NCBI GenBank assembly: GCA_019704295.1
Contig: AP024596.1
Location: 1,696,001-1,760,000, forward strand
DNA: 64,000 bases
Source: Sulfolobales archaeon HS-7
GTDB lineage: Archaea; Thermoproteota; Thermoprotei_A; Sulfolobales; Sulfolobaceae
Direction of reading: 5' to 3'
Positions within the stretch are counted from its first letter, which is position 1. The number at the start of each line of letters is the position of its first letter. The notes under the pieces are model-generated. The model worked only from the letters and a program-made list of their open reading frames with translations, had not been told where the DNA came from and did not search any database. A program made the position numbers and the translations under genes. Below, piece by piece: positions 4,731 through 35,959 of this stretch.

Positions 4731-5241
4731 TTTCCTTGCCTTTAAATGACTGCTGTTTCTTCTTGAGATTAATTTCCAGAACACCGTTCTTGTATGTAGC
4801 TTTGACACTGTCCTCGTCCACCTCTGCGGGGAGTTCAACAGTCTTACTGTATTTCTTATCCTGTGCATCTGCAGTGATAAACAGCTTATCGCCATTTATA
4901 CTGACCTTAATCTTGTCCTTATCTGCGCCTGGAATTTCCGCCAGTACTCTAATGTCATTATCTTTTTCAATTATATCGACTAGTGGTTCCCTCTCGTTAC
5001 TTATTACAGGTTTGCTTCCAAGTCTCTTTACGTTACCGAATTCCTGAATCTGCGGTTTTCCATCAGGTCCTACGGTTACCCTGAATCCATACACGTAAGG
5101 TCCTATTTCTCCAGTTGATGAGGTGCTTGCTCTCCTCATAAGTTCCCTCTCAAACTCCTCGAATTCCTTCTGCATATCCTCAATCATCTCGTCGAAGTAA
5201 TCGAATATATCCCTAATCTTCTTGGGCATCGTGGTCACCAA
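4717..5241 (-). CDS. hsp20: Small heat shock protein Hsp20
   Basis: GPYVYGF...GPDGKP...EFGN, REPLVD, AEIPG, ATYKNGVLEI and C-terminal IKIE. Confidence 0.95.
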   Translation of the reverse strand: MVTTMPKKIRDIFDYFDEMIEDMQKEFEEFERELMRRASTSSTGEIGPYVYGFRVTVGPDGKPQIQEFGNVKRLGSKPVISNEREPLVDIIEKDNDIRVLAEIPGADKDKIKVSINGDKLFITADAQDKKYSKTVELPAEVDEDSVKATYKNGVLEINLKKKQQSFKGKEIKIE

Positions 5242-5337
5242 GTACTTCTGGCCTCTTAAGGAAATAAAGTTAACCGAACGAAAAAAATTTAAGTCAGAGC
5301 ACGTAATATTTATTTTTTAATAAAAAGAGAAGTGAAT

Positions 5338-5394
5338 AAATGATTAAAGCTCAGGCATCTGAGGAATGATGAATGCCCGACCCAAGGATGAACT
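5338..5394 (+). ncRNA. Candidate box C/D guide sRNA
   Basis: ATGATTA (C, 5340) - 12 nt - CTGA (D', 5359) - ATGATGA (C', 5366) - 15 nt - ATGA (imperfect D, 5388). Confidence 0.55.
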
Positions 5395-5815
5395 ACGGTT
5401 GAATTAATTCAATTAGAACTCCGTTAGCGGATCGGGGATGGATGAAAACGGTTAGGTAATTTAAGGCTCCTCTCCTTGGGGTTTCATCTATGAAAGTATA
5501 ATTCGACTTCATCTTCTGAATGAATTCCCATATATTGGGGACTAGTATTGCAATATGATGTAGCCCTTCTCCTCTTTTGGTGAGGAATCTAGCAACGGGA
5601 TTGACTTCGTTATAATGAACGGGCTGGATTAGTTCTATCATGGAGTCCCCATTCCTCAAGAAAATAACTTTAATATCCCTGTCCTCTAAAACCCCGGACC
5701 ACGTTATGTCAAAGCCTAATGTTTCGTAAATTTTAGACGTCTTCTCCAAATTTTTAGTGGCTATTCCAACGTGATGAATTCCGGTACTCATCATATGATT
5801 TTTAAGGTAGAACAT
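5393..5815 (-). CDS. mce: Methylmalonyl-CoA epimerase (VOC family)
   Basis: IHHVGIA, IELIQP, RGEGLHHIA and FIHPRSANGVLIEL. True start is probably one of the internal Mets (MMSTG). Confidence 0.9.
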   Translation of the reverse strand: MFYLKNHMMSTGIHHVGIATKNLEKTSKIYETLGFDITWSGVLEDRDIKVIFLRNGDSMIELIQPVHYNEVNPVARFLTKRGEGLHHIAILVPNIWEFIQKMKSNYTFIDETPRRGALNYLTVFIHPRSANGVLIELIQP

Positions 5816-5827
5816 TAATAGTTGATT

Positions 5828-5944
5828 ATGATAACTAACTCGATTGCTAACGTAGGGACAATAATTTACGCTTCAGCCTACCTTTCGTTACTCCTAGCAT
5901 CGATAGGTGCCGCTATAGTGCTAATAAATAGGAGGAAGACATAA
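5828..5944 (+). CDS. Putative 38-aa single-pass membrane micro-protein
   Basis: Hand-translated: MITNSIANVGTIIYASAYLSLLLASIGAAIVLINRRKT*. One hydrophobic helix plus a basic tail; fills the gap between mce and the T4P operon. Confidence 0.5.
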   Translation: MITNSIANVGTIIYASAYLSLLLASIGAAIVLINRRKT

Positions 5945-6034
5945 CTAACCAGAATGTCCTAGGAAAACCTTAAAATATTACTTAGCGGGGCAAGGGAGAT
6001 TCAAAAAAGGGGGGTATAGGAGGTTAAAGAAAAG

Positions 6035-7954
6035 TTAACTTAGCAACGTGAGAAGATTACCTAATTGAAACGGATTTATATGTAGTATGTAGAAAAGGGA
6101 TAATTCCATGGCAAGGATAGAAGCTAAAGCTACTATAGAAACCTGAAAAACTCTAAAAGTACTTTTGGCAGTAGAATCGTAGGCTTTTGCGTATAAAATT
6201 CCAAAGATCACTCCTGTTTCAGCTATCATAAACTCTAGGGTAGGAAGCATTTGCTCAAGTACATTTCCAATGTGTGTAAAAGCTTGGAAGAAAGTCAATA
6301 TACCGGTAAGTCCGCCAAGCGAAACTGAGAAGCCTTGAGCAGAAGCTGTCTGTATCGTGGATTGGAGATCGGGTACTTGAACAAGAGACGATATTGTAAC
6401 CATGACGTACACGGTAAGTACTATTATTCCAGCTAGTAGGGCAGGAGCAAGTACGGTAGAACCTAGAAAAGCATATAGACTTTCCTTTTTCTTTTGCAAC
6501 GCATCATAATACGCATCCCCTATTTCAGAAAGTCGCCTTAAGACATCATATCTTAAAACTCCTTGCCTATCCATATCGATAAGGGATCTAAATACGGTCT
6601 TTGCCAACCACGAGTCGGAGTCAGGATAAACCTGACCTACTGTTACTGCCTCAGACAAGTAACTATCGATCATTCGGTTTATTTCCCTTCCAAACGCCTT
6701 GTTCCCCCTCAGTTTGGTTAATGCCGTATAAAGATTGTCTCCTGTAGACCTTATGTGCTCAGCTACAGACCTTAGAAATATTGGCATTTTCTCATCTGCC
6801 TCATTCTTCCATTTCATTCTTCGATATATCGGATAACCATAAACTGCCGTAAAAACCATTACGGGAAATAGAAATAACATCCATAACTGAACGGAAAACC
6901 GCAAAAAGTTCTCCAAAAGGAATATACCCGCAAACGTGCCCCCACCTAGGAATAAACCCCAAAACAGATTTCCCTTTATCTTAACGTCCTCCGGGGGAGA
7001 TTGAAAAACTAAGTAAAGAATCAATCCAATTCCTAATAACGGATACATAAAGAAGGCTATTGAATCAGCACCGTATATCGGATTGTTTTGAACAATGGCA
7101 AACCATATGGCAAGCATAGGGAGCATTAACAAAAAGAGTAACGAGAGTTCGCTCATGCTAGATGCGACCTTTCCAAATCTCTCCCACTTATCTCGAAGGA
7201 AGTCCATTACTTCGACTGTCATTCTGTCCAAATATGAGGATAGACTTCCTCCTATCTTAGATATTGATACAGAACCTGAGAGAATTCTTTCAAATATCGT
7301 TGATGGGTGATCTATTGCTTCTCTCATTACTGCATCGTCAGGTTGCATTGAGAATACTACGAAGTCCCTGTAAATTTTCTCAAATTCCCTAGATGATTCC
7401 GGAAGGGTGTCCTTCTCTCGCTTAAGCTGTTCAATCATTTTTATAACTCCAATCCCTAGCTGGGACATGCTCCACATCATAAGTGCCAGAATTGGTAATT
7501 CTTTCGACATTTGAGAGGATATATTATTTCTAATCTCGTAAGTTTTTACCCAAGGGTAAAATATTGTTAATGGGGACAACGCGGCGGAGGCTAAACCATA
7601 GTAAGGATTTCCCGTAAACACGTAAATAAAGATAGAGACTATTGCTACAAGGGGAAAACCCAATAATGTGTACCATTTAGCTTGGGACAGCCAAAGGTCA
7701 GGACTCTCAATAACCTTTGCTCTCTCTATTAGAGAGGCCATAACGTCAACCATATCCGAATTTCTATACTTAAACGATAAAACAGTTAAGAGGGTGGTGT
7801 AGATGGCTAAAGATGACAATATCGTGAATAGATATATATTTTTAACGAAATAAAGAAATATTATCGAGAGGGCTAAAAAGGTTGCAGTGAGGATCGTGCC
7901 AAGGGACGGATTGTAAATTTCTAATGAGAAACTTCTCTTCACTCCTCCTATCAC
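6035..7954 (-). CDS. T4P/T2SS inner-membrane platform protein (TadC/GspF-like, two repeats)
   Basis: Polytopic membrane protein with two T2SSF-like cytoplasmic domains (ELP...SREFEKI; MPIFLRSVAEHIRSTG). Start overlaps the ATPase stop. Confidence 0.88.
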   Translation of the reverse strand: MIGGVKRSFSLEIYNPSLGTILTATFLALSIIFLYFVKNIYLFTILSSLAIYTTLLTVLSFKYRNSDMVDVMASLIERAKVIESPDLWLSQAKWYTLLGFPLVAIVSIFIYVFTGNPYYGLASAALSPLTIFYPWVKTYEIRNNISSQMSKELPILALMMWSMSQLGIGVIKMIEQLKREKDTLPESSREFEKIYRDFVVFSMQPDDAVMREAIDHPSTIFERILSGSVSISKIGGSLSSYLDRMTVEVMDFLRDKWERFGKVASSMSELSLLFLLMLPMLAIWFAIVQNNPIYGADSIAFFMYPLLGIGLILYLVFQSPPEDVKIKGNLFWGLFLGGGTFAGIFLLENFLRFSVQLWMLFLFPVMVFTAVYGYPIYRRMKWKNEADEKMPIFLRSVAEHIRSTGDNLYTALTKLRGNKAFGREINRMIDSYLSEAVTVGQVYPDSDSWLAKTVFRSLIDMDRQGVLRYDVLRRLSEIGDAYYDALQKKKESLYAFLGSTVLAPALLAGIIVLTVYVMVTISSLVQVPDLQSTIQTASAQGFSVSLGGLTGILTFFQAFTHIGNVLEQMLPTLEFMIAETGVIFGILYAKAYDSTAKSTFRVFQVSIVALASILAMELSLFYILHINPFQLGNLLTLLS

Positions 7955-9486
7955 ATTACTCCCCTCCTTTCGTAGAACTTCTGGAGTCCGCTCTTGAACT
8001 CGGTAATCGTACTCTTTGCGGTTAGTTTGAAGAATTCATTCCTTTCCTCTAATTCTAGTTTGAGCCCTTCCTCAGTTTTCCCCTTTTTATACGCTAATAA
8101 GGAGAGCCGTTTGCTTTTGATGAGATCAGAGTCGTCCCACATATCAGTCACAGGGTTATAAACAGCTAGTCTATTATAGACGGCTTGACCTTGAATGAGA
8201 TTAATCTCTCCCATTTCCTGTACTCTTCTCCTCAGAAACGTATTTCCATTTACGTTCACTGGAAAGGAATCAATGAATACTACTAAGGAAATTATTGAGA
8301 AGAAAGAGTCGTCAATACCTGAGTAATTAAATCTGGCCTTCAGTGATGGGAAGTCCTCTGCGTGAATTGAGGTCACTCCTCCGTGACCGCTGGCCACTGA
8401 ATGAATGAACTCGTTTAATTCCTCCTTTGTCCTCACCTCTCCTACTGACACTAGATCCGGTCTTATCCTCAGCGTGTGAGCTATCAGTTTATCGAGAGGT
8501 ATGTCAACAGCCTCGGCATACTCCATAAAAGTTGTACTTTTTCTGGAAATCAGCCTTACCCAGTTAGGATGAATTACCTTAAGTTCTGGGATTTCCTCAA
8601 CCGTCACTATTTTCCAAGTTGGTGGAAGAATGGTAAGCATGCCGTTTATAAGTGTCGTCTTACCGGTTCCCGATCTCCCAACCACTAATACGACTCCCCT
8701 ATTTTCCAACACATACCATATTGCTGATGCCATCCAATCGGACATAATTCTCTTGCTGTAAATCATATAACTAAGGGTCCATACGTCTTCTAAGGGTTTT
8801 CTTATAGATATCGATGAACCTGGAAGAGAAACCTCCCTTCCGTAAGTAAGGGCTAATCTGTATCCCTCAGGAGAAATAGCATCGACTATTGGTTTTGCTA
8901 GTGTAACGGACTTTCCAGCCTTCAATGCTATTCTCTGAACGAGGTAATCCGCGTCACTTGGAGTTAGATGAATGTTGGTCGGAAGCCACGTTCCGAAACC
9001 TCTGTGAAAGACCCATACTACGTCTCCCCTTGCTTTATCAACTCCAGCACCTGCATATGAAATATCCTCAATCTCCATATCGTCAAAGAGAGGAGTTAGT
9101 ACATTATATCTGAGGATGTCCCTTATCACGTAGTAACCCATAGTTTTGTCGTAGTCTATAGCCTGCAAAATTTGAGCTATCAACTGATCCTCCTCAGAGG
9201 GTTTTATGACGTAATACAGCATTTTCATCTTATTTTCAAGTTTAGCCTTCTTCTTCTCGTCAAGATAAGGTTCATCAATTTGATAGGAGAATCCATCGTT
9301 AGTCTTTACTACATATGAAGATGGGTACTCAACTCCTTTATCCTCATATTTCCACTTTAATTTAGTTTCGGATAGGATCTCTCCTTTATCCACCTTTTTA
9401 AGACATTTTATATTAATGTCAGTACCAAGTGGTGTTTCAGATGCCGTCACAATCTTCTTTCTCTTAAACAAAGACATCTTACCCAC
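7951..9486 (-). CDS. T4P assembly ATPase (VirB11/TadA/ArlI-like)
   Basis: Walker A GRSGTGKTT, Asp box VTVEEIPEL, Walker B RPDLVSVGEVR, His box SGHGGVTSIHA. Confidence 0.93.
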   Translation of the reverse strand: MGKMSLFKRKKIVTASETPLGTDINIKCLKKVDKGEILSETKLKWKYEDKGVEYPSSYVVKTNDGFSYQIDEPYLDEKKKAKLENKMKMLYYVIKPSEEDQLIAQILQAIDYDKTMGYYVIRDILRYNVLTPLFDDMEIEDISYAGAGVDKARGDVVWVFHRGFGTWLPTNIHLTPSDADYLVQRIALKAGKSVTLAKPIVDAISPEGYRLALTYGREVSLPGSSISIRKPLEDVWTLSYMIYSKRIMSDWMASAIWYVLENRGVVLVVGRSGTGKTTLINGMLTILPPTWKIVTVEEIPELKVIHPNWVRLISRKSTTFMEYAEAVDIPLDKLIAHTLRIRPDLVSVGEVRTKEELNEFIHSVASGHGGVTSIHAEDFPSLKARFNYSGIDDSFFSIISLVVFIDSFPVNVNGNTFLRRRVQEMGEINLIQGQAVYNRLAVYNPVTDMWDDSDLIKSKRLSLLAYKKGKTEEGLKLELEERNEFFKLTAKSTITEFKSGLQKFYERRGVM

Positions 9487-10237
9487 CTCCTTCGCAGACC
9501 CTTCTGTAGCATGGCTGAAAGTCGTTTAATGGAAGCATTGAAGAGTGTTCTAGATTACCGTAAGCTGTTGTAACTGCAGCCATGATATTCTGAAATTCAT
9601 GCTGGCTTAACTCATTGAAGAAATACGTATTGATCAGAACGTTTTTCGAGCCAATAGGCGGTAGGTTAAGGTTACACCCATTCCCCCGATGCAGTCCGTA
9701 CGTTACATTATTGTAATCTTGGATGCTTTGAAACACGTAGTATGTTATTGAATATTCCTGTCCAGGAGCTAAATTCAGATTTAGGGGTTCACGATACCAC
9801 GGAGTACCTTCTGGTACACCACCAATAGCATCCAACATTTCTAGGCTATCTATATGAGATACCACGGAACCGATATTCTTTATGATTATGTTGATTTCAT
9901 AGTAACTTCCCCAAAACTTCTCCCCTAGAGGTAGCGAACATGGTTGTGGAGGTGGAAGAGGGGGTGGAAGAGGTAGAGGTGTCGTATAATATTTCACTAT
10001 CACGCAATGCTTTACTATTGATAGGGTTACGGAGATGTCTTCCTGATTTTTATTTTGTATGTGAAGTTGAGCTTGGCTAATTTCAGTTGAAATAGCTTGA
10101 TTATCTGCAAAGAATATCCCCAAAGCAGCGAGTGAGGCTAGGACTATAAGGAGGAATATTATCGTTCCAATTACTGTCCCTAAACCTCTCCGAAGGAAAC
10201 CCAATCCATAATTAAACACTATACGGAACCACCTCAT
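9479..10237 (-). CDS. Prepilin-like protein 4 (minor/tip pilin, Pro-rich insert)
   Basis: Class III signal peptide RRG|LGTVIGTIIFLLIVLASLAALGIFF, a PLPLPPPLPPPQP segment and 5 Cys. Confidence 0.8.
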   Translation of the reverse strand: MRWFRIVFNYGLGFLRRGLGTVIGTIIFLLIVLASLAALGIFFADNQAISTEISQAQLHIQNKNQEDISVTLSIVKHCVIVKYYTTPLPLPPPLPPPQPCSLPLGEKFWGSYYEINIIIKNIGSVVSHIDSLEMLDAIGGVPEGTPWYREPLNLNLAPGQEYSITYYVFQSIQDYNNVTYGLHRGNGCNLNLPPIGSKNVLINTYFFNELSQHEFQNIMAAVTTAYGNLEHSSMLPLNDFQPCYRRVCEGGG

Positions 10238-10664
10238 ACGCGTTTCCCGCTGTGGTGTATATAGTAACGTTATAGTTGTTCGTGGGTACCACTAAAGGTA
10301 TTACTATCAAATACTCTTTGCCTGAAATGAGATTCCCGTAAGGTTCGAAATAGAGGAGAGGTTTTCCACATGAGACGTTCTCTACCAGGTAAACCGAGGC
10401 CTGTACAGGTGTGAAATAACTTCCATAAGTTGCGTAAGCTATAACTAAGTTCCCAGGACCATAATTCATAACATATACACATATGTCAGAGGAATTGTAA
10501 TCGGCGTAAAGGACAGATAAGAGCTGAACATCTGGAGTTTGAGAAGATGTGGGGACTGAATTGAAGAAGAATCTTCCGTCTATTGATAGAAAAGCCCCCA
10601 GCAATATCAGGGTGATCACAAGAGACAGGAGGGCTGCAACAACGTCCGACAAACCCCTGTTCAT
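10212..10664 (-). CDS. Prepilin-like protein 3
   Basis: MNRG|LSDVVAALLSLVITLILLGAF class III signal; beta-rich domain ending IYTTAGNAY. Confidence 0.87.
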   Translation of the reverse strand: MNRGLSDVVAALLSLVITLILLGAFLSIDGRFFFNSVPTSSQTPDVQLLSVLYADYNSSDICVYVMNYGPGNLVIAYATYGSYFTPVQASVYLVENVSCGKPLLYFEPYGNLISGKEYLIVIPLVVPTNNYNVTIYTTAGNAYEVVPYSV

Positions 10665-11191
10665 GCTCCCACCTCAGACGCCGACGATTGTATAACAATT
10701 GACGTCGAGCCTAACGTACCAAATACCTTCACTATAGTTACGTTTCCAATAAGGAAAAATGGCAAAGAAACACCATTCAGCTGCTGATTTACAGAACAGA
10801 AAGTGTAAAGGAGCTGATGCTTACCAGGCGGGACGGGATATGGCAAATTCACTTCATAATTCTTTAAGAGGGAATAGTTACTAAATGTTGTATAATATGG
10901 ACCTTTAGGCTGTATACTCCAATACCCTGAACCGGTTGGATTAGAGATCGTGATCTGATTTACTACAAAAGAATAATACCCATCGTTTTCTACACATAAT
11001 TCAACCAAAGCTAAATTACCTCCGTTCACAAGAATTACTTTCGATGTAACTGTAACTTGAGGGGTAGATTCTAGGTTGTTTATCCAACCCACCCCTATGT
11101 TATAAAGAACAGTCCAGGCTAAAAAAACAATTAAGATTAGGAGGAGAGAACCTACAATATTCGATAATCCTCTCCCCCTTTTTACTACCAG
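10661..11191 (-). CDS. Prepilin-like protein 2 (extended upstream to a CTG start)
   Basis: ORF-track start at 11092 misses an in-frame class III signal KRGRG|LSNIVGSLLLILIVFLAWTVLY. The only near-cognate start before it is CTG at 11191, 6 nt after AAGGGGGG. Confidence 0.78.
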   Translation of the reverse strand: MVVKRGRGLSNIVGSLLLILIVFLAWTVLYNIGVGWINNLESTPQVTVTSKVILVNGGNLALVELCVENDGYYSFVVNQITISNPTGSGYWSIQPKGPYYTTFSNYSLLKNYEVNLPYPVPPGKHQLLYTFCSVNQQLNGVSLPFFLIGNVTIVKVFGTLGSTSIVIQSSASEVGA

Positions 11192-11203
11192 AGAGGTCCC
11201 CCC

Positions 11204-11767
11204 TTAGTCCTGTACGACTACGCTGTACTGGTTTATTATTGATTGGCTAGTGACGTTATCCTGCCCTATTACTACGAACACAACAGTTTGCCCTACCGTC
11301 AGGGAGATTCCTGAAGACGATGGCATTAGCCCTTGAAACGTCACTGATTGTCCTGGTTCTACTAGTAAAGCGCCATCACTTAAGACCTCATATTCTCCGC
11401 CGGCTGGAGTTATGTAATTAGTTGTACTTCCTCCTCCATTTCCACCAGACGCAGATGCTTTCCATAAAGCGCTTTGTACACCATTAGCGCCAAGTGCTAT
11501 TTCGCTTATGGCCAATGGGTCATTCCCGCTATCCGTAACAGTGACTGCAATAGATGCTCCATTTGCCTTATAATTACCTCCCGCTATTATTACAGAGGCG
11601 TCAGACACTGAAACTGAGGCATCATGACTATTAGATGCAAATAGTCCGAATACGAAGTGACCTATCAGTAGCGCCGCTACAATAGTTAACACTATTAATA
11701 ATAACGAACCTACTATGTTGGATAGACCTCTTTTTACCTTTTTCCTAGAGTTTCGGGTTACATACAT
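11204..11767 (-). CDS. Prepilin 1 (probable major pilin)
   Basis: RKKVKRG|LSNIVGSLLLIVLTIVAALLIGHFVFGLF; Ser/Gly/Thr-rich Ig-like domain; first gene of the operon. Confidence 0.9.
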   Translation of the reverse strand: MYVTRNSRKKVKRGLSNIVGSLLLIVLTIVAALLIGHFVFGLFASNSHDASVSVSDASVIIAGGNYKANGASIAVTVTDSGNDPLAISEIALGANGVQSALWKASASGGNGGGSTTNYITPAGGEYEVLSDGALLVEPGQSVTFQGLMPSSSGISLTVGQTVVFVVIGQDNVTSQSIINQYSVVVQD

Positions 11768-11796
11768 GTTTCTTCTGAAATAATCGTCCTGCTTCC

Positions 11797-11873
11797 TTTA
11801 TAAAAAGAACACTCCTGAACGAAAATAAAACTTAGAGCGGTCTTAGTTTCACATTGGTTCCACTCAGGTTCCA
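11797..11873 (-). promoter_or_regulatory. Pilin operon promoter: TATA box plus three 11-bp-phased direct repeats
   Basis: TTTTTATAAA on the - strand (11797-11806), about 30 nt upstream of the pilin ATG. AGTTTCA/GGTTCCA/GGTTCCA at 11845, 11856 and 11867. Confidence 0.5.
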
Positions 11874-12436
11874 TTTTTCCTTGCGGCTTAATTATCTTCA
11901 GATTATTAATGAAGAACTTACTCGCTACCTGTCAAAATTAATTCTCAGCATTTTCCTGAATTTCATTTGAATATCAAAGTTGTTAGTATAACGTAACTAG
12001 GATTTAAAACTCAATAATTGTTCCCTTGGGTGTTAATAAACCTCCTGAAACGCTGGAAAACTTGGATCATAACGATATTATTAGACTCCTACATGACAAA
12101 TTCCTCGCATATCAATTACTAGACTACGGTAAGTTTTAACGGATACATTATTTCTAAGAGAAGATATTAACTCCGGATATTAACGTTTTAAGATTTGATT
12201 AACCTCTGTTACATAAACTTTTGAGCAATACTAATAATTAAAAAAGACCTTAATAAAAAAGGTCTAGTCCCGACCGAAAACAATGTTGTGTTAAGTAATA
12301 TAGAAATTTTTCACTTCATTTTCTATATACTGATAAATGCTCACTAAAATATTACACTATTCTATATTATTCTGTTTTTTACTATCAAGAAATAACTAGT
12401 GAAAAGCTTATAACAGACAAATAATGAAATTATGTT

Positions 12437-12922
12437 ATGGAATATACGGGGCAAATAGACGTAACAACCCTTTTAGGAGACACAAATTTGATAAAATTCG
12501 TCCAGAACACGCATGATCTAATAAATCCCAATATTATACTCATGAAAGGGGGAGAGCATTTCGTAGTTCTCTTCATAGCTCCAAAGGTTAATATAATGAT
12601 GTCGAGTTTGATTACCGCGTTTCTTCTGATTCTCGAATACCTGATAATAACTAAAATGGATTTCTTCAGAAATCGTTTTTTCAAATCTAAGAAATTAAAT
12701 ATACATCTTAACGATAGAGACCTTATAATATTACGAGTGTTATTAGATGGGACCGACCGTTTTTCCGAAATTGTTATGAGAACTGGATTGCCCAAATCAA
12801 CAGTTTATAGGAGGCTACTAAGACTTATAGACCAAGGAGTAGTAGAGGAACAAAACGATATTTCTGGGAAGAAGTATAAAGTTAAAGATGAAAAAATTAG
12901 AAAATTAGTAAAGGGGTATTGA
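12437..12922 (+). CDS. Membrane-anchored protein with C-terminal winged-helix HTH (possibly N-terminally truncated)
   Basis: Hydrophobic segment MMSSLITAFLLILEYLII, basic linker, then LNDRDLIIL...FSEIVMRTGLPKSTVYRRLLRLIDQGVVE wHTH. Confidence 0.78.
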   Translation: MEYTGQIDVTTLLGDTNLIKFVQNTHDLINPNIILMKGGEHFVVLFIAPKVNIMMSSLITAFLLILEYLIITKMDFFRNRFFKSKKLNIHLNDRDLIILRVLLDGTDRFSEIVMRTGLPKSTVYRRLLRLIDQGVVEEQNDISGKKYKVKDEKIRKLVKGY

Positions 12923-13647
12923 ATTTTCATTTTGTAGGTAAATTACCCCTTGCCCCTACCAGAAAATCAAAAGTAGTTTATCTATTTCGAATGTGATGTC
13001 AGAGGTAAAAACAATTTTTTATTGTAAAATAAACACATTTCTAAAGCTTAACTGTGGATTCTCGTACCTAATATGATTGTAAAAGAGATAATGAGAAAAA
13101 ATCACAGAGGTAGATCTTCGATCTCTAGTTAGTTCTTGATATTACGAAATTCAACGGAGAAATGGCAGGAGATGCGTGTAGAACACTCATTTTCAATCGA
13201 TTAGGAGATCCGTAAAGACAATAAGTAAACCAATGGCAGTTTATGTGAGGAACTAAGCAGGGAATGATCAGAAGATGACGAGGAGACTCAACGTGAAGGG
13301 AGATCTCGGCTAGAATATAAGCATGGAGTTAACACGTCGATAAAGGGAAATAGACCGTTACTGTGGTAGCAGATTGTGAGAGGTATAAAGGGATTCTTCC
13401 CGCAAAGACATATTAAAGCCTGGATTAGGTCTAAATATACCAGGAATCTCTGAGGCCGAGATTATTAACGAGATCCCAGCAAGTTCGATACGCGTCATGA
13501 CTACCTTCAGAACTTGTAAAACTTCGTCCTCTAACCACTCTCTTAGTCATACTACAGGTGAGGCTTTGACGCAGGGATAGAGGATAGCCTAGCTAACTTC
13601 AATTTAGACAACCGCAAAAATATATTGTTCAACCAAGATATTAGCGT

Positions 13648-14088
13648 ATGTTAAGGGAATCGTCAGACGTTTTACTCGATTTGTGTTCAATGATTGTAAA
13701 ATGGTTCGGAAATGAAGTAAAGGGAATTGTGGTGAATTTAAAAAGTAGCAAAATAGTCGTCTTAATTGTTCTGGATGGTATAGATAGGATCTCTTTAGTT
13801 GCGCGAGGGGAAATATCCTCTTTCTTTTTAAAGAAAATAATGAGAAGTGAAAATTTTATTAAGTTCGTCTCAAAAACGGGACATGAACCGGATTTAACCC
13901 TTCTCTTCCTTACTGAGGAGGAACTGAGTTTTCATATACCCGGTATTGTTGAAATCTTAAGAGGGAGTTACGTTTTATTCGGAACGGACAAAATAAAAAA
14001 GGAGGTGAAATTTTCAAACGAGTTACCTTCATCAGGCAGGGCAGTTTTCTTCGGCAAGTTAAAAAAAGGGGAGGTAATTGACATTTGA
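13648..14088 (+). CDS. Degenerate minimal nucleotidyltransferase (MNT)-like protein
   Basis: Size, VLIVLD strand, LTEEE, and K-x-GEVIDI end resemble archaeal MNTs; no GS or DxD motif; overlaps a HEPN-like gene. Confidence 0.55.
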   Translation: MLRESSDVLLDLCSMIVKWFGNEVKGIVVNLKSSKIVVLIVLDGIDRISLVARGEISSFFLKKIMRSENFIKFVSKTGHEPDLTLLFLTEEELSFHIPGIVEILRGSYVLFGTDKIKKEVKFSNELPSSGRAVFFGKLKKGEVIDI

Positions 14089-14501
14089 ATAACAGCTCCA
14101 CTGCTTCTGAATTCATTCTCCGCTCAGTTCGTCTTATGAAATGCGCTGAAAGCGCGTATGAAGAGGGCGACATCTCTGCATCTGTGATCCTGCTATATTC
14201 CGCAGCTTCTTACGGTATTAGAGCAATACTTATTTTACATGGTATATACACAAGGGAAGAGCCGATGAGCTATTTGAACTTAATCCCGTGGGACACAATT
14301 TTAGATGAAAGGGAAATGATCGAAATACTCTCCACAATAATAGAGATTAAACAAAAGGGAGAAATTGCAACGGTTATTGAGGAATCCTCGCTAAAATATC
14401 CCAGTTTATTAATAAGGAATGTAGAAGCTAAGGATTTAATGGAAAAGGGGGAGAAATTGATACAAACCTTACAGAGGTACTTCGATGAGTTTCATAATTG
14501 A
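14085..14501 (+). CDS. HEPN-domain protein (degenerate)
   Basis: A-x-x-A-Y-EEGD...A...IRAILILHGIY helical pattern and EAKDLMEKGEKLI end. Confidence 0.7.
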   Translation: MNNSSTASEFILRSVRLMKCAESAYEEGDISASVILLYSAASYGIRAILILHGIYTREEPMSYLNLIPWDTILDEREMIEILSTIIEIKQKGEIATVIEESSLKYPSLLIRNVEAKDLMEKGEKLIQTLQRYFDEFHN

Positions 14502-29962: not shown

Positions 29963-31798
29963 ATGGCTAAAAGAAAAGGAGGTAACACTCCAGAGATAAT
30001 TCCTAGAAGGAGTTCAACGGAATTAATATTTAGAAATACCTCACTGGCGAAATCGCTAGCAAAGGGATATGAAATTAAACTAAAGCAGGCAGGACTAAGC
30101 ATAGATCCTCTGTCATATGCATCTACGATGCTATTTTACCTAATTATAGGGTCCGTGAGTGGTGTTGCAATTGCAGCTGTAGGTATCGCTTTAATTTTTA
30201 AATTCTATATATTAGCAATTGTTAAAAATCCAAAGATAATAATTATAGCTCTACCTTTAATACTCTTTGGCATGCTTATGCCAATTATTCTATACTTAGC
30301 ACTTAATGCGAATATATCTGAGAAAATTGATAAATTGAAGGTAGGATTAGATAGCGAGACCCCAATATTCTCAGCGGTCTTCCTCGTGTATATTCGATCG
30401 GGACTAAATCCTGGTTACCTTTTTGAACAGCTAGCTGAGAGTAAAGCCTTTAATAACATTAGGAAGTTCTCATCTTACATAACCAAGAGAGTAAAATACG
30501 TAGGAGGAGGAATAGAGGAAGCATTGTTATCCGCAGGTACTATTTCTCCCTCAAAGACGTTCAGAGATTTACTATTTACATACGTTACTGCTATTAGAAC
30601 TGGAGCTCCAGTTGTCAATACATTGGCTGCTAAGGCTCAAGATATTCTTAAGGACTTCGAAGTTCTCACTGAGAAAGCCGCCGATAATCTCTCAGGGCTC
30701 GCTGAAGGTTACGTTATATACCTCTCCTCTGGATATATTTTCTTCTTCTTAGCTGCGATAATGTCTGGACTGTTTCCCACATTTAAAATACCTTTACCCG
30801 TCCTAGCGATACTCGCCATATTTGTAATCCCGATGGCTAATTTTGTATTCACGTTCTGGGCGGATAAAATACAGGTTAAGTTTCCAGAAGAAACAATGAA
30901 AGCGTATAAGATTTTCTTCATATCTTTTCCAGTGGGAATTGCAGTGACAATTGTGCTTTTAGCATTAACAAAGCAATTACTACCTCTAATAACATTAACA
31001 GGGGGCCTTAACAACATTAACCTGACTTCTATAGACATAGCTGTAGGTCTAATAATAGCCTCAATTCCGCCTTATATTGAAACTAAGAAGGAATTAGGTA
31101 GTCGTTCTGGATATAACGAGTACATTGTTAGGTTTCTAAGGGCTATTGGGGAGGGACTTAGGGCTGGTCTTTCCCCTCAATCCGTGATGGAGAGACTTAG
31201 GGATGCAAGCGAAATGGGAAAGTTCAGAACTATATTATCAGAAGTTACGGCGATCCTCATGTTCGGAGTGTCCTTAAAGGACGCATTTAAGATCGGTGCG
31301 TCAAAAATAAGAGACTTCACAGCAAAAGTAGCTATGGTGTCGCTTGCTGATATGCTAGAGATAGGAAGTATGACACCTGATACAATTGAAAGTATAGCAG
31401 AACAAATTGACACCCAACTCTCTTCAGAGAAAAGGTATAGAGAGAAAATCAAAATCCTCATAATAAGCCCCTACCTTGCGATATTTCTCTCTCTATTTGC
31501 CTCAGTTGTTCTAGGCGCATCAATTGTAAAGCTATTTAGCGTAACAACACTACCAGCTTTCAGTTACGGCAATCTCGAACAAGCTATCATAGAATTACCG
31601 AGAATAACTTACGTAATAGGAATTTCTTCAATAATTAACGCTTTCTTCGCGGGGTTTTTTGTAGGTAAACTGCAAACTGGTAAGACTGCATCGGGTTTCT
31701 TACATTGTATAATACTTACAGTAATATCCACTGTTATGGTAATAATTGCGCCGCATTTAACTTTAGTATTTCCTCACACATCTACACCGACTATTTAA
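29963..31798 (+). CDS. aapF: T4P membrane platform protein, Aap type
   Basis: Two T2SSF domains (YIRSGL...YVTAIRTGA; FLRAIGEGLRAGLS); upstream of an ATPase and an AapX-like gene. Confidence 0.82.
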   Translation: MAKRKGGNTPEIIPRRSSTELIFRNTSLAKSLAKGYEIKLKQAGLSIDPLSYASTMLFYLIIGSVSGVAIAAVGIALIFKFYILAIVKNPKIIIIALPLILFGMLMPIILYLALNANISEKIDKLKVGLDSETPIFSAVFLVYIRSGLNPGYLFEQLAESKAFNNIRKFSSYITKRVKYVGGGIEEALLSAGTISPSKTFRDLLFTYVTAIRTGAPVVNTLAAKAQDILKDFEVLTEKAADNLSGLAEGYVIYLSSGYIFFFLAAIMSGLFPTFKIPLPVLAILAIFVIPMANFVFTFWADKIQVKFPEETMKAYKIFFISFPVGIAVTIVLLALTKQLLPLITLTGGLNNINLTSIDIAVGLIIASIPPYIETKKELGSRSGYNEYIVRFLRAIGEGLRAGLSPQSVMERLRDASEMGKFRTILSEVTAILMFGVSLKDAFKIGASKIRDFTAKVAMVSLADMLEIGSMTPDTIESIAEQIDTQLSSEKRYREKIKILIISPYLAIFLSLFASVVLGASIVKLFSVTTLPAFSYGNLEQAIIELPRITYVIGISSIINAFFAGFFVGKLQTGKTASGFLHCIILTVISTVMVIIAPHLTLVFPHTSTPTI

Positions 31799-31831: not shown

Positions 31832-33532
31832 ATGGTACCAATAAAGTTTCCGAAAAAAAACAATAAGGTTACCATTGACACTAATAAAGAACTTAGTGAG
31901 ATGCCTTTGACGCTTATCCCGTTTTACACGATAAGTCCAGAGGAGTTAAATCAAATCGTAGCTGACTATGAAGTGGATATTACTAAAACAATCCCTAGTG
32001 ACGTAATAACTGAGCTGCAAAATAATAGAATAGATACGGAAATAGCGCTACCACATGTCTTTATTGCGTATGATGACAATAAAGGGCTATACACGTATAA
32101 CGTGGTCGAACCAGAAATAGATTCGACAGCAATGTCTATTTACATTGATATAATTGGAACATTAGAACGGAAACTTATTGAGGAAGGTTCAAAGCTTTCA
32201 ATATCGTCAATAATAAAGGACGTTGCAAGTCTTCATAAGACGCTAATAAATACAGAAGACCAAACAAGATTAACGCTGAGTACGCCAGGAAAGATCGCCT
32301 TATACTATTTCTTCAGGAATGTCTTTGGGTATAATATACTCACCACGTTACTTACGGACCCGCGAATTGAAGACATATCTATAGGTGGAATAGGACAACC
32401 CGTTTACGTCTATCACAGAGAATATGAGTATATACCTACAAATATCACAATAAATGATATAATGAAAGTTAATAATGTGATCAAGGATGGAAAAGAACTT
32501 TTGGATCAAATTCTCCTAAGATTTGTATTTTTAGCGAATAAGACTATATCAATTGCCAACCCGATCGCTGATGGAGTTCTTCCCACGGGTTCACGTATAG
32601 CAGCGACTTTTCGAAACGAGATATCAGTCAGAGGTTCAAGTATGGTGATAAGAAAGTTCGCTGGAAGACCAATTACTGTACTCGACCTCATAAATAGCAA
32701 CGTTATGTCGCCTGAAGCTGCCGCATTTTTATGGTATGCAATAGACATGAAAATGACGTTCATGGTAATGGGCGTTACTGGTGCAGGAAAAACCACAGTG
32801 CTTAATGCGATTCTCAACTTAGTCAAGGACACTAATAAGATAGTATCCATAGAGGATATCCCTGAATTAAGGCTGGCTAATGAGAATTGGATACAGCTTG
32901 TCAGCCGACCCGCTTACGGAGATACTGGGAAGGAAATCTCTCTAATGGATTTAGTAAAACTCTCACTAAGGTATAGGCCGGATATAATAATTGTAGGAGA
33001 AATAAGGGGGCAGGAGGCCTACGTTTTATTTCAAGCGATCTCTACCGGGCATGGAGGCGCTACAACCTTCCACGCATACGATATAGATTCCGCCACGAAA
33101 AGACTGATAAACAACCCATTGAATATACCAGAGGCATGGATTCCTATGATGAATTTAGGAATCGTCGTCAGAAGACTTCCGGTCTTTATAGGAGATAAAA
33201 TGGTATTAAGAAGAAGAATTGTATCAATTGATGAGATAGTTGAGTATAACGATTTTAGAAGAGTAGTAAGCTGGGATCCAAGACGTGACGCTCATGTACT
33301 CGATATTGAGAATTCAAAAGTTATGAGAAACAGACTCGAAGAGTCGGGAAAGACCTTAGAAGAAGCCAAGGAGGAGATAGAAAGAAGAACAGCATATTTG
33401 AAAGCGTTAACTAAAATACCACAAATAGTCCAAAGCGATGAGAGTTATAAGGAGCTTAAAAAGTACATAGTGAAGTATAGTATAAGACCAGAGGAAGCGA
33501 TAAAGGAAGTTACGATGCAGGTCAGGACGTGA
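31832..33532 (+). CDS. aapE: T4P assembly ATPase, Aap type
   Basis: GVTGAGKTT, SIEDIPEL, RPDIIIVGEIRG and TGHGGATTFHA motifs; flanked by aapF-like and aapX-like genes. Confidence 0.85.
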   Translation: MVPIKFPKKNNKVTIDTNKELSEMPLTLIPFYTISPEELNQIVADYEVDITKTIPSDVITELQNNRIDTEIALPHVFIAYDDNKGLYTYNVVEPEIDSTAMSIYIDIIGTLERKLIEEGSKLSISSIIKDVASLHKTLINTEDQTRLTLSTPGKIALYYFFRNVFGYNILTTLLTDPRIEDISIGGIGQPVYVYHREYEYIPTNITINDIMKVNNVIKDGKELLDQILLRFVFLANKTISIANPIADGVLPTGSRIAATFRNEISVRGSSMVIRKFAGRPITVLDLINSNVMSPEAAAFLWYAIDMKMTFMVMGVTGAGKTTVLNAILNLVKDTNKIVSIEDIPELRLANENWIQLVSRPAYGDTGKEISLMDLVKLSLRYRPDIIIVGEIRGQEAYVLFQAISTGHGGATTFHAYDIDSATKRLINNPLNIPEAWIPMMNLGIVVRRLPVFIGDKMVLRRRIVSIDEIVEYNDFRRVVSWDPRRDAHVLDIENSKVMRNRLEESGKTLEEAKEEIERRTAYLKALTKIPQIVQSDESYKELKKYIVKYSIRPEEAIKEVTMQVRT

Positions 33533-33721: not shown

Positions 33722-35959
33722 TTGATGTTAGATGCGTCCATATTCAGTAGAGCAATGAGCGGTATGAATGTTGACGATTTGAAGAAACTTCAAGCTGACA
33801 CCGACGTACTCATTCTGGGAAGAGGGACTTCAATGACAGGGACTATCTTAGGAATAAAGGCTAAAAGAACAGATATAGCGAAGGATAAACTTGATAATGG
33901 GAAATTAATAGAAAAAGATACCGAGAGAGATGGACTATACTATTACAGGGTAGCGGCTGGAGCTAAGTTCTCTGACGTTATATCAACGCTTTCGAGCGAA
34001 AATATGGTACCTGCTATCTTCCCTCTATATTTGGAGGGAACAGTTGGAGGGTTTGTAGCGACTAATGGTTCTGGATTCGGAAGTTACAGATATGGATTCG
34101 TCTCCTTTAAAAAGAAAACTGGAGAGCTAATTGATAATAACGTAGCTAAGATTGCCGCTGTACCTTACATGGAGCTAATTGAGACAGATTACGAGGTAGA
34201 CATAGCTTGGTCGGGTCTTATAATACAGGATGCTGTAAAATATTATGTTCCCCAGGATCTTGCAGAAAAGGTAGGTATAAATGGTAAGCCGGTTAAAATT
34301 AGCGAAATAATCGCTATCATAAATTCAATGGTATCCCTTTCCTTCTCTCGTGAATATATACCAGTTATCTTGAGAGGGGAAGTAGGGATTAAGGATAAAA
34401 TTCCAAATTTTTTTACCCCAATAATAGGTTACGTGATAAAGTATAACTCTCCGGACGCCCAAAATGTAATACTAGGTAAAGTTAAACAGTCAGAATTAGA
34501 TGAATTATTCAAGTTCCTAAAAAAGGAAACCAAGATCCTGCCTTTTCCCTCCTTGACAACGTACACAGAAGTACACAAAAAAATTATGAATGATTATAAA
34601 GGAGTAAAAATACCGACGAAGTACGTAAGCATTAAGGACGCTTTCCTCGACGCAACAATGTGTATCAACTGTGGAAAATGTATAGATACATGTAAGGCCT
34701 TTGAAGTGTCCCGAAATTTAGATAACTCTGCTGTAGGGAGATTGAATAGAGTATCAATAGGTGAGACGGATTTCCTACCATGCTTCGGTTGCACAAGATG
34801 CGAGGAAGTTTGCCCGGTGGGAATTAAGATATCTAGTATAACTGAAATACTACCTAGATTAAGTAAAGAGAGAAAAATAGAACCAATAGAAACTTCCCCT
34901 GCTACTCCCATGGCAAGGTCACTAGAGGCAAAAATTGACGAAAAATACAGAAATAGACCGCCTGTCTTACTTTTCGTGGGCTGTACATCAAAGTATGACC
35001 CTGTAGGATTAGAAGGATTTCTACAGTTCCTACTTGATTACGGAGATGAACTAAAGGCTTCTCCTCGGGCAAGACTTATTGACGACATTTCATGTAGTTT
35101 CAACAAATACGTTGCAGGCGACGTTGAAGGGGCGAAAAATGAACTCATGAAAATTGTAGAGAAGAAGAAGATAAATAACGCTGAATCCGTATACTTTCTA
35201 TGCCCAGAGGAAATGTACGTTTATCAAAACCTTATTGACAAAAACGTTAAGTTGGGATATGAACTACTTAAGGACAAAATATCAGTTAATATTCATAAGG
35301 GATGCTGGTTGAAGAAATTAGGTATTGTTAACAATTCTGACGAATGTGCTGGTAATTACTATACCGTTTATATGAATAATCTGGTCAAATCATACATTAG
35401 GGACACACCAGTTTGCCCTTTCGCCTCATGGAAAACTGGAAAACCGTCAGTTTACGCATTATTTAGGAAAAATATTTCTGAGGAAGTAAAAACCCAAGCT
35501 AAAGTAAATAAAGAATTAAATTTGAGCGAAATATTTTATTTAGCCATAAGAGAGGCTACCTTGAATTCAGCGGAATATATGGCCGATAAGTTAAATAATT
35601 GGAAATTAGGAGGCAGGAATTTTTACAAGAGTATTATAACACCTTATGTAAAAAAGGAGTTATATGTAGCCCTTGTAGGAAAGTTAAAGACTATTAAGGA
35701 TGAATTAAAAGAACGGAGCATAGACGATCCTTATTTACAAGCAGAGATTGACAAAGCTGTCGATGAAATAAAGGGAATGAGTTGGGAACCTTTGTTGATG
35801 GAAATTAGAAATAGAGTTATTAATTCAGCTAAACTCGACTATTTAAACAGGACAATTGCAGAATCGAAGGAGTTTCTAGACGTTCTTAGTGAAATAGCAT
35901 CATCTATGATACAAAAAAATATAATTATAGATGCAATACGAACAGTATATTATTCATAA
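33722..35959 (+). CDS. aapX: FAD-binding/4Fe-4S oxidoreductase-like protein AapX
   Basis: PCMH-type FAD motif GTVGGFVATNGSG, CINCGKCIDTC and CFGCTRCEEVCP; linked to the T4P ATPase. Confidence 0.78.
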   Translation: MMLDASIFSRAMSGMNVDDLKKLQADTDVLILGRGTSMTGTILGIKAKRTDIAKDKLDNGKLIEKDTERDGLYYYRVAAGAKFSDVISTLSSENMVPAIFPLYLEGTVGGFVATNGSGFGSYRYGFVSFKKKTGELIDNNVAKIAAVPYMELIETDYEVDIAWSGLIIQDAVKYYVPQDLAEKVGINGKPVKISEIIAIINSMVSLSFSREYIPVILRGEVGIKDKIPNFFTPIIGYVIKYNSPDAQNVILGKVKQSELDELFKFLKKETKILPFPSLTTYTEVHKKIMNDYKGVKIPTKYVSIKDAFLDATMCINCGKCIDTCKAFEVSRNLDNSAVGRLNRVSIGETDFLPCFGCTRCEEVCPVGIKISSITEILPRLSKERKIEPIETSPATPMARSLEAKIDEKYRNRPPVLLFVGCTSKYDPVGLEGFLQFLLDYGDELKASPRARLIDDISCSFNKYVAGDVEGAKNELMKIVEKKKINNAESVYFLCPEEMYVYQNLIDKNVKLGYELLKDKISVNIHKGCWLKKLGIVNNSDECAGNYYTVYMNNLVKSYIRDTPVCPFASWKTGKPSVYALFRKNISEEVKTQAKVNKELNLSEIFYLAIREATLNSAEYMADKLNNWKLGGRNFYKSIITPYVKKELYVALVGKLKTIKDELKERSIDDPYLQAEIDKAVDEIKGMSWEPLLMEIRNRVINSAKLDYLNRTIAESKEFLDVLSEIASSMIQKNIIIDAIRTVYYS

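Follow-up and report, generated by a model that had tools for sequence, protein, structure and literature searches.

Introduction

The Sulfolobales serve as the principal model for the surface structures of crenarchaea; their usual filament repertoire consists of the archaellum, the Aap and Ups pili and the bindosome (Bas), plus threads. Closest to the locus described here are Bas and Ups. The Bas locus of the S. solfataricus type reads Zn-ribbon membrane protein, BasA, BasB, BasC, BasE, BasF and a 512-aa secreted protein; the Ups locus reads UpsX-E-F-A-B. Here we analyse a six-gene operon on the minus strand (6035–11767) of a 64 000-nucleotide stretch of DNA from Sulfolobales archaeon HS-7 (GenBank assembly GCA_019704295.1, contig AP024596.1, positions 1696001–1760000), referred to below as the window. 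The genome, of the family Sulfolobaceae, is a single contig of 2.15 Mb with 39.6% G+C. The operon encodes four prepilins (pilins 1–4), an assembly ATPase and a platform protein, and an initial annotation had regarded it as a second pilus system that was either a divergent Bas-like locus or an uncharacterised surface filament.

For the Sulfolobales, the available text of a 2026 census (Sivabalasarma and Albers, PMC13705601) lists only the bindosome and Ups within subsystem 4I of the type IV filaments (T4F), together with Aap, the archaellum and a rare 4B; Metallosphaera, Sulfurisphaera and Stygiolobus are all unmentioned in its main text. The same text describes Bas core loci as normally separate from loci for binding proteins and ATP-binding cassette (ABC) transporters. 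Minor pilins are documented in the Epd pili of Methanococcus maripaludis, where the major pilin EpdE and the minor pilins EpdA–D are co-encoded and required for piliation (PMC4371748).

Results

A six-gene operon encodes the parts of an archaeal T4F

The six tightly spaced genes lie where the initial annotation had placed them and include matches to the Pfam families T2SSE, T2SSF and Pilin_N. Together they provide what generically defines an archaeal T4F: a VirB11/T2SSE-type ATPase (7951–9486; 511 aa when read from GTG 9486; T2SSE, 75 bits), an adjacent polytopic platform of the T2SSF/TadC type (6035–7954; 639 aa; T2SSF, 41 bits) and pilins with class III signals. The ATPase retains an intact Walker A motif (GRSGTGKT), Asp box, Walker B motif and His box, and its profile aligns over almost the full length with its nearest solved relatives, A. 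fulgidus GspE (afGspE, 2OAP) and S. acidocaldarius FlaI (4II7). Among 5.8 billion clustered proteins, 16 clusters are at least 49% identical to the ATPase, and the next tier follows at 35%.

The ATPase and platform form clades of their own

We placed the ATPase in a tree of 61 sequences (IQ-TREE, LG+C20 with posterior mean site frequencies, support by the Shimodaira–Hasegawa-like approximate likelihood ratio test). Reference loci came from S. acidocaldarius DSM 639, Metallosphaera sedula DSM 5348, the S. solfataricus type, M. hakonensis, M. yellowstonensis, Sulfurisphaera ohwakuensis, Sulfolobus sp. S-194 and Stygiolobus caldivivus. The locus family forms its own clade, with support of 100 and a stem 2.03 substitutions per site long, separate from the Bas (97), Ups (100), Aap (100) and Arl (100) clades, Bas and Ups being joined at 99. 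The platform tree recovers the same five clades, with the locus family at 100 on a stem of 1.96 and Bas at 96. The two three-pilin loci elsewhere in this genome fall within the Bas clade (monophyletic, 96–98), as does the BasE that passes its curated model.

Scores against NCBIfam models point the same way. For the ATPase and platform they reach 159 bits against a cut-off of 1000 for BasE, 186 against 550 for FlaI, 161 against 400 for UpsF and 70 against 1300 for BasF; for the pilins, 19 against 260 for BasC and 31 against 130 for UpsA. UpsF is the best named model for the platform, aligned over residues 93–610, and UpsA the best for pilins 1 and 2. As a control, the S. solfataricus-type BasE scored 1134 bits with the BasE model and so passes 1000, and the two Bas-like ATPases of the genome scored 396 and 403, with BasE as their best model.

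These results bear directly on whether the locus is a known system in disguise, be it an ordinary bindosome with orthologous BasABC-EF, an Ups or Aap locus or an archaellum locus. Such an identity would explain the pilins-first order, which the initial annotation had recognised as that of Bas and which the S. solfataricus-type locus bears out, as well as the weak NCBIfam matches to BasE, BasF, BasC, UpsA and UpsF. However, the ATPase and platform do not nest within BasE and BasF and score far below cut-offs that a true BasE exceeds. One-to-one homologues of BasA, BasB and BasC exist in the genome, but they sit in those two three-pilin loci and not at the studied locus. UpsX, AapX and ArlH/X/F/G are missing from the locus, as had been noted for ArlH, ArlX and AapX, and the genome has Bas-like, Ups-like and Aap-like loci of its own. 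The trees and the orthology relations contradict an ordinary bindosome, and we give hardly any weight to a known system of whichever kind.

To place the family more deeply, we added metagenome relatives of 27–40% (mostly 29–37%) identity to the ATPase tree (LG+G4, quick search). A clade supported at 97 now unites the locus family, one orphan, a thaumarchaeal group, Ups and Bas, and within it the locus family stands outside the thaumarchaeal group, Ups and Bas (94); the platform tree weakly agrees (74). Forcing the locus family and Bas into one clade costs 20 log-likelihood units and is not rejected by the approximately unbiased (AU) test (p = 0.136). Given the separate clades and this non-rejected relation to Bas, we read the family as a deep sister of Ups/Bas (subsystem 4I of Makarova 2016 and the 2026 census), with a provisional branching order. 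On these sequence comparisons the locus would represent a fifth T4F lineage of the Sulfolobaceae, distinct from the archaellum, Aap, Ups and the bindosome and deeply sister to Ups/Bas, a reading to which, together with the mechanism postulated in the Discussion, we assign a probability of roughly 0.6. The data thus favour an uncharacterised Sulfolobales filament system, the second option of the initial annotation. The first, a divergent Bas-like locus, fails in that the family lies outside the Bas clade and survives in the weak sense of a deep sister of Ups/Bas. Within the locus-family clade, where the window ATPase has the longest end branch (0.6), the ATPase tree tracks taxonomy, which suggests old presence with repeated loss.

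The operon is conserved in part of the Sulfolobaceae

The order pilin 1-2-3-4-ATPase-platform is kept in M. sedula, M. hakonensis, M. yellowstonensis, Sulfolobaceae RB850M, S. ohwakuensis, Sulfolobus sp. S-194 and Stygiolobus caldivivus. Identity to the window proteins is 55–62% for the ATPase, 40–49% for the platform, 41–62% for pilin 1, 27–44% for pilin 2 and 36–47% for pilin 3; pilin 4 orthologues match over the first ~60 residues only. A search of 351 genomes of the class found orthologues in 8 of 47 Sulfolobaceae species and in two of the nine genomes of one further family, there within a single genus, and none in the other 295 genomes. In a metagenome-assembled genome of that other family, pilins 2–4, the ATPase and the platform are together and the pilin 1 orthologue lies 1 kb downstream. 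The metagenome-assembled genome with the most distant orthologue also carries a second ATPase of 618 aa, on an end branch of 3.45, ~8 kb downstream (L010:9385–12849); this divergent ATPase is preceded by small open reading frames (ORFs) of membrane or pilin-like type. A correlation of the system with metal oxidation was considered and dropped because a smaller Metallosphaera genome is without the system.

The locus is absent from S. acidocaldarius and Saccharolobus and present in cultivated species including M. sedula; its absence from these genetic workhorses may explain why it has been overlooked. In M. sedula, Msed_1197/Msed_1198 appear as a 'FlaIJ-like' pair in the genome paper (Auernik et al. 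2008, in the passage quoted in PMC6593293), and our literature search found no other paper naming Msed_1193–1198. In the tree of Makarova 2016, as given in the supplement (PMC4858521), the M. sedula ATPase (GI 146303966) is an orphan of clade 4 on a long branch, joined at a support of 0.2 to a Caldiarchaeum sequence. The family is already catalogued, through the M. sedula pair, but neither named nor studied. New in the present analysis are the T7 run and the GTTYCA repeats found in all eight operons, and the CTG of pilin 2, all described below.

Four pilins with class III signals

As the initial annotation had it, all four pilins carry an RG|L class III signal, consisting of a basic stretch, the G|L site and a hydrophobic helix of ~20 residues. 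Pfam Pilin_N matches pilin 1 at 29 bits and pilins 2 and 3 below threshold. The genome has one Peptidase_A24 (PibD-type) gene, elsewhere at 473614.

Pilin 1 (11204–11767, minus strand; 187 aa; signal KRG|LSNIVG) is the best conserved of the four and the candidate major pilin. Residues 1–35 of the mature protein and an N-V-T sequon hardly vary, and the C-terminal end ...VVQD is also conserved. The AlphaFold2 (AF2) model (predicted local distance difference test, pLDDT, 85) combines an N-terminal helix with a beta-sandwich, and the PDB entries that it matches best are archaeal pilins known to form filaments: the S. islandicus pilus (6nav), the S. acidocaldarius Aap filament (8q30), the S. solfataricus pilus (6w8x) and Pyrobaculum pili.

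The resemblance of the predicted pilin 1 fold to filament-forming adhesive pilins counts against a rival account, in which the four pilins build a short, cell-wall-embedded pseudopilus that, like the bindosome but non-orthologous to it, positions surface proteins with class III signals, for example substrate-binding proteins. Several observations suit this account. The gene order is that of the S. solfataricus-type Bas locus, the nearest clades are Ups and Bas with a Bas-sister relation that the AU test does not reject, and pilin 1 has distant homologues among the BasC-type pilins (29% identity over 168 aa). Moreover, M. sedula has the studied system but no Bas-clade ATPase. The initial annotation was right that no sugar-binding protein is nearby, but this is not diagnostic, since binding-protein genes need not adjoin a Bas core (in the text of PMC13705601). 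Against the pseudopilus stands, besides the modelled fold, the presence in this genome of two Bas-like loci that already carry BasA/B/C homologues. The Bas accessory genes, for a Zn-ribbon membrane protein and a secreted protein of ~500 aa, are not at the locus, and no client protein is linked to it in any of the eight genomes. We regard the pseudopilus as unlikely, though as a serious contender, and consider a surface filament built of pilin 1, with pilins 2–4 as accessory subunits, the most probable product of the operon.

Pilin 2 (10661 to about 11191, minus strand; ~176 aa; signal GRG|LSNIVG; candidate minor pilin) is unusual at its 5' end. Its frame contains no ATG, GTG or TTG ahead of the signal peptide, is continuous with that of pilin 1 across the pilin 1 stop codon (TAA, 11206–11204), from which it is open, and receives from the ORF tool a start (GTG 11092) that falls inside the mature protein. 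In the alignment, a CTG at 11191–11189 stands exactly where the orthologues have their ATG (LVVKRGRG|LSNIVG versus MVIQKRRG|LSNIVG), and the Shine-Dalgarno position reads GGGGGG in the window versus GGTG in the orthologues. From the sequence, then, this CTG is the candidate start, the other possibility being that pilin 2 has no independent translation. Initiation here may be non-canonical or coupled; otherwise the CTG may mark the beginning of gene loss or be an error of sequencing.

Decay or silencing of the system in this genome, in a family that may be functional elsewhere, would account for the lost pilin 2 start and its altered Shine-Dalgarno position, for the long ATPase branch and for a neighbouring regulator that is the most divergent of its family. 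Yet all six frames are open, the ATPase motifs are intact and no residue that is invariant in its orthogroup is missing from pilin 2. Also retained are the T7 run, TATA box and upstream repeats (see below), and a long branch is expected for the only species of its genus sampled. We think decay quite improbable.

Pilin 3 (10212–10664, minus strand; 150 aa; signal MNRG|LSDVV) is a candidate minor pilin whose orthogroup is conserved at the 36–47% identity given above. Pilin 4 (9479–10237, minus strand; 252 aa from ATG 10237; signal RRG|LGTVIG), a candidate minor or tip pilin, has a variable C-terminal part: conservation is confined to the N-terminal ~60 aa and a C-terminal T.YGN motif, and the orthologues range from 155 to 321 aa. 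Its AF2 model (pLDDT 71) shows a 47-residue helix and a beta-sandwich, with the Pyrobaculum calidifontis type IV pilus (8fk7) as the top PDB match. The initial annotation had called this pilin adhesin-like. The Pro-rich stretch, PLPLPPPLPPPQPC, proves to be an insertion present only in the window protein among the orthologues and takes the form, in the model, of a loop of low confidence within a pilin fold; no recognisable adhesin domain was found in pilin 4, and its ESM Atlas neighbours are unnamed archaeal pilin-like clusters that give no adhesin lead. Even so, specificity or contact would most likely reside in the variable outer part of pilin 4. A complex prediction for the globular parts of pilins 2, 4 and 3 (with pilin 3 as partner) scored 0.00, which is evidence neither way. 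Sulfurisphaera and Stygiolobus have an extra pilin 4 paralogue (201–216 aa) just past the divergent regulator gene (L067:4399–5004, L048:14809–15414, L051:4487–5137).

Operon architecture and candidate regulatory elements

Gene spacing in the operon is 0–12 nt whichever starts are chosen. The tight packing reported initially therefore holds, and the pilin 2/pilin 3 and ATPase/platform genes each overlap by 4 nt; two of the reported overlaps hang on which starts are taken for the ATPase and pilin 4. For the ATPase, ATG 9477 is likelier, being preceded by GGAGGTG, and yields 508 aa, the length of an identical database protein (P0001); pilin 4 possibly starts at GTG 10219, which has GAGGTGG ahead. 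A TATA-like box, TTTTTATAAA, can be read at 11797–11806 (minus strand), ~30 nt upstream of the pilin 1 ATG, and five of the seven orthologous loci have such boxes at the matching position, making six in all with the window. A T6 run at 6003–6008 (minus strand), 27 nt past the TadC stop, is a candidate operon terminator; T5–T7 runs lie 12–27 nt past the platform gene in 5/8 loci.

A second oligo-T element lies inside the operon. In the window, a T7 run at 11121–11127 (minus strand) falls within the 5' part of pilin 2, 77 nt past the pilin 1 stop, and each of the eight Sulfolobaceae operons has a T7 run 58–81 nt past that stop, near the beginning of the pilin 2 coding sequence. It is the sole run of at least seven Ts in each operon of 5.3–6.2 kb, and in half of them (4/8) the sole run of at least six. 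The codon context differs by subclade, GTT TTT TTA (I-V-F-L-A) versus CTT TTT TTG/A (S-L-F-L-I), and synonymous sites next to the run vary, so the constraint looks to act at the level of DNA or RNA and not at that of the protein. Oligo-T tracts are termination signals for archaeal RNA polymerase. We accordingly propose the T7 run as a candidate attenuator, at which partial termination would leave pilin 1 mRNA in excess over the message from the genes that follow.

Upstream of the promoter are three TGGAAC/TGAAAC hexamers (GTTYCA on the other strand) at 11846–11873 (minus strand) with 11-nt spacing, a candidate operator. Each of the eight loci has two to six GTTYCA/TGRAAC hexamers within 200 nt upstream of pilin 1. 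The total of 29 in 8 × 200 nt compares with ~1.4 expected by shuffling, the background being 0.16–0.36 per 200 nt. Genome-wide, clusters of the hexamer number three versus 3.2 expected by chance. One is the pilin 1 site, and a second immediately precedes the TATA box of a gene for a 161-aa secreted protein, directly downstream of a long-form regulator gene; it is by position, not number, that the clusters link the motif to this regulator family. An Rfam scan of 5000–14500 returned no match, and a repeat finder run on the 670-bp spacer returned weak inverted repeats only.

Divergent from pilin 1, and at the place given by the initial annotation, a gene at 12437–12922 (plus strand) encodes a membrane-anchored winged helix-turn-helix (wHTH) protein of 161 aa, a candidate regulator with an HTH_IclR/TrmB/MarR domain at residues 90–150 and a hydrophobic stretch at 42–76. 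A membrane-wHTH gene of one family neighbours the operon in 8/8 Sulfolobaceae loci. The short form is directly divergent in the window, Sulfurisphaera, Stygiolobus and RB850M; the long form, in Metallosphaera, has a signal peptide and an outer domain of ~200 aa and lies two to three genes away. The description of this protein as a dedicated regulator is supported by the conserved neighbourhood and the conserved upstream repeat, and binding remains predicted: judged from sequence, the neighbouring wHTH protein probably binds the GTTYCA repeats.

The window genome also has a long-form wHTH gene 34 kb away (1672829–1673590), whose product shares 38% identity with the M. sedula protein across 275 aa and which adjoins the same partner membrane protein. 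It belongs to a paralogous module (1672269–1674244) comprising the 253-aa long-form wHTH protein, a divergent 179-aa membrane protein and the downstream 161-aa secreted-protein gene. The promoter of the last carries GTTCCA-N2-GTTCCA...TGAAAC just before the TATA box and may be a second target of the regulator family. In M. sedula and M. hakonensis, a cytochrome b561/Rieske fusion gene sits between the long-form regulator and the pilin operon (L044:4608–5915, L062:14953–16155).

Other filament loci in the genome

The studied operon is not the second pilus system of the organism, as had been supposed, but one of five T2SSE ATPase loci, the others being Ups-like, Aap-like and two Bas-like. The Ups-like X-E-F locus lies at 120 kb; its ATPase and platform are on very long branches, and no pilin genes adjoin it. 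The Aap-like set is in the window (platform 29963–31798, ATPase 31832–33532) and includes the AapX-type Fe-S protein that the initial annotation had located apart from the operon, a FAD/4Fe-4S protein at 33722–35959.

The two paralogous Bas-like loci, at 1.27 and 1.60 Mb (1264415–1279000 and 1596000–1606000), have three pilins each, of BasA/B/C type and divergent from the BasE/F-like genes. One of these loci adjoins a 1412-aa protein with a class III-like N-terminus, and a further BasA/B-like pilin pair lies near 1286668–1287195. The whole genome contains no Arl-clade ATPase and no match to the archaellin family (PF01917), and the organism thus appears to be without an archaellum. We considered the system as a substitute for the missing archaellum and dropped this idea because M. 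sedula has both an archaellum and the studied system.

Discussion

We postulate that the four prepilins are inserted in the membrane and would be cut after the RG motif by the single PibD-type peptidase. A hexameric T2SSE ATPase docked on the T2SSF platform would drive their assembly, via the hydrophobic N-terminal helices, into a surface filament. Pilin 1 would be the bulk subunit, and pilins 2–4 low-copy subunits that prime or cap the filament, with the variable outer part of pilin 4 as a likely point of contact; conservation, gene order and the T7 run make a split into major pilin 1 and minor pilins 2–4 plausible. The whole operon would be served by a single TATA promoter ahead of pilin 1, and the conserved T7 run just past pilin 1 probably stops part of the transcripts, such that pilin 1 would outnumber the downstream products. 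The GTTYCA repeats would in turn be bound by the neighbouring membrane-anchored wHTH protein. Our best guess for the biological role is attachment to surfaces or between cells. At a little under even odds, we tentatively propose a new T4F subsystem, sister to 4I, with a fixed design of one bulk pilin and three that prime or tip the filament, its own wHTH/GTTYCA circuit, an attenuator that sets the subunit ratios, and a role unlike those of Aap (adhesion), Ups (aggregation) and Bas (nutrient capture).

Several points weigh against the lineage and mechanism set out above. First, the evidence is genomic; expression and filament formation are predicted. Second, the deep placement beside Ups/Bas is moderately supported, at 73–97 depending on model and sampling. 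Third, T-rich runs arise easily in codons for hydrophobic helices, and the major/minor split rests solely on conservation, gene order and the T7 run. Fourth, the short regulator of the window is 35–43% identical to the others over the HTH only, making its orthology positional. Lastly, pilin 2 is without a canonical start and has a weakened Shine-Dalgarno match, so that the window copy may be impaired.

The locus is a further conserved machinery of the Sulfolobales, separate in its ATPase, platform, regulator and four pilin families, and would add a branch to the current T4F classification. It also offers a compact case for the function of archaeal minor pilins, for the setting of pilin ratios and for membrane-bound one-component control of a pilus operon.

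Comparison with described systems

Relative to the archaellum, the locus falls outside the Arl clade, contains none of the ArlH/X/F/G genes and stays far below the FlaI cut-off (186 versus 550 bits). Unlike Aap, it has no Fe-S AapX gene, and the Aap-clade ATPase of the genome lies elsewhere in the window. Ups is nearer: it shares the larger clade and supplies the best named matches for the platform (UpsF, 161 bits) and for pilins 1 and 2 (UpsA). However, the locus lacks UpsX, has the reversed order with pilins first, four pilins instead of two and a clade of its own, and Ups-like loci coexist with it in M. sedula and the window genome. With Bas it shares small class III-signal pilins ahead of the ATPase and then the platform, membership of the nearest larger clade, an expected PibD-type processing and the distant homology of pilin 1 to BasC-type pilins. 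It differs from Bas in its separate ATPase and platform clades, in having four pilin orthogroups versus three with no one-to-one match to BasA or BasB, and in being without the Zn-ribbon membrane protein and the secreted protein of ~500 aa.

The pair Msed_1197/1198 of M. sedula is directly orthologous, the ATPase being 55% identical and the same four pilins lying upstream; there the regulator has the long form, which includes an extracytoplasmic domain, and its gene lies beside the Rieske/cytochrome b fusion gene at a distance of two to three genes. The Epd pili of M. maripaludis differ in belonging to another T4F clade, in using the EppA peptidase and in their Q+1 pilins, and the likeness is one of design only, but their architecture of one major and several minor pilins is the one we propose, by analogy, for this locus.

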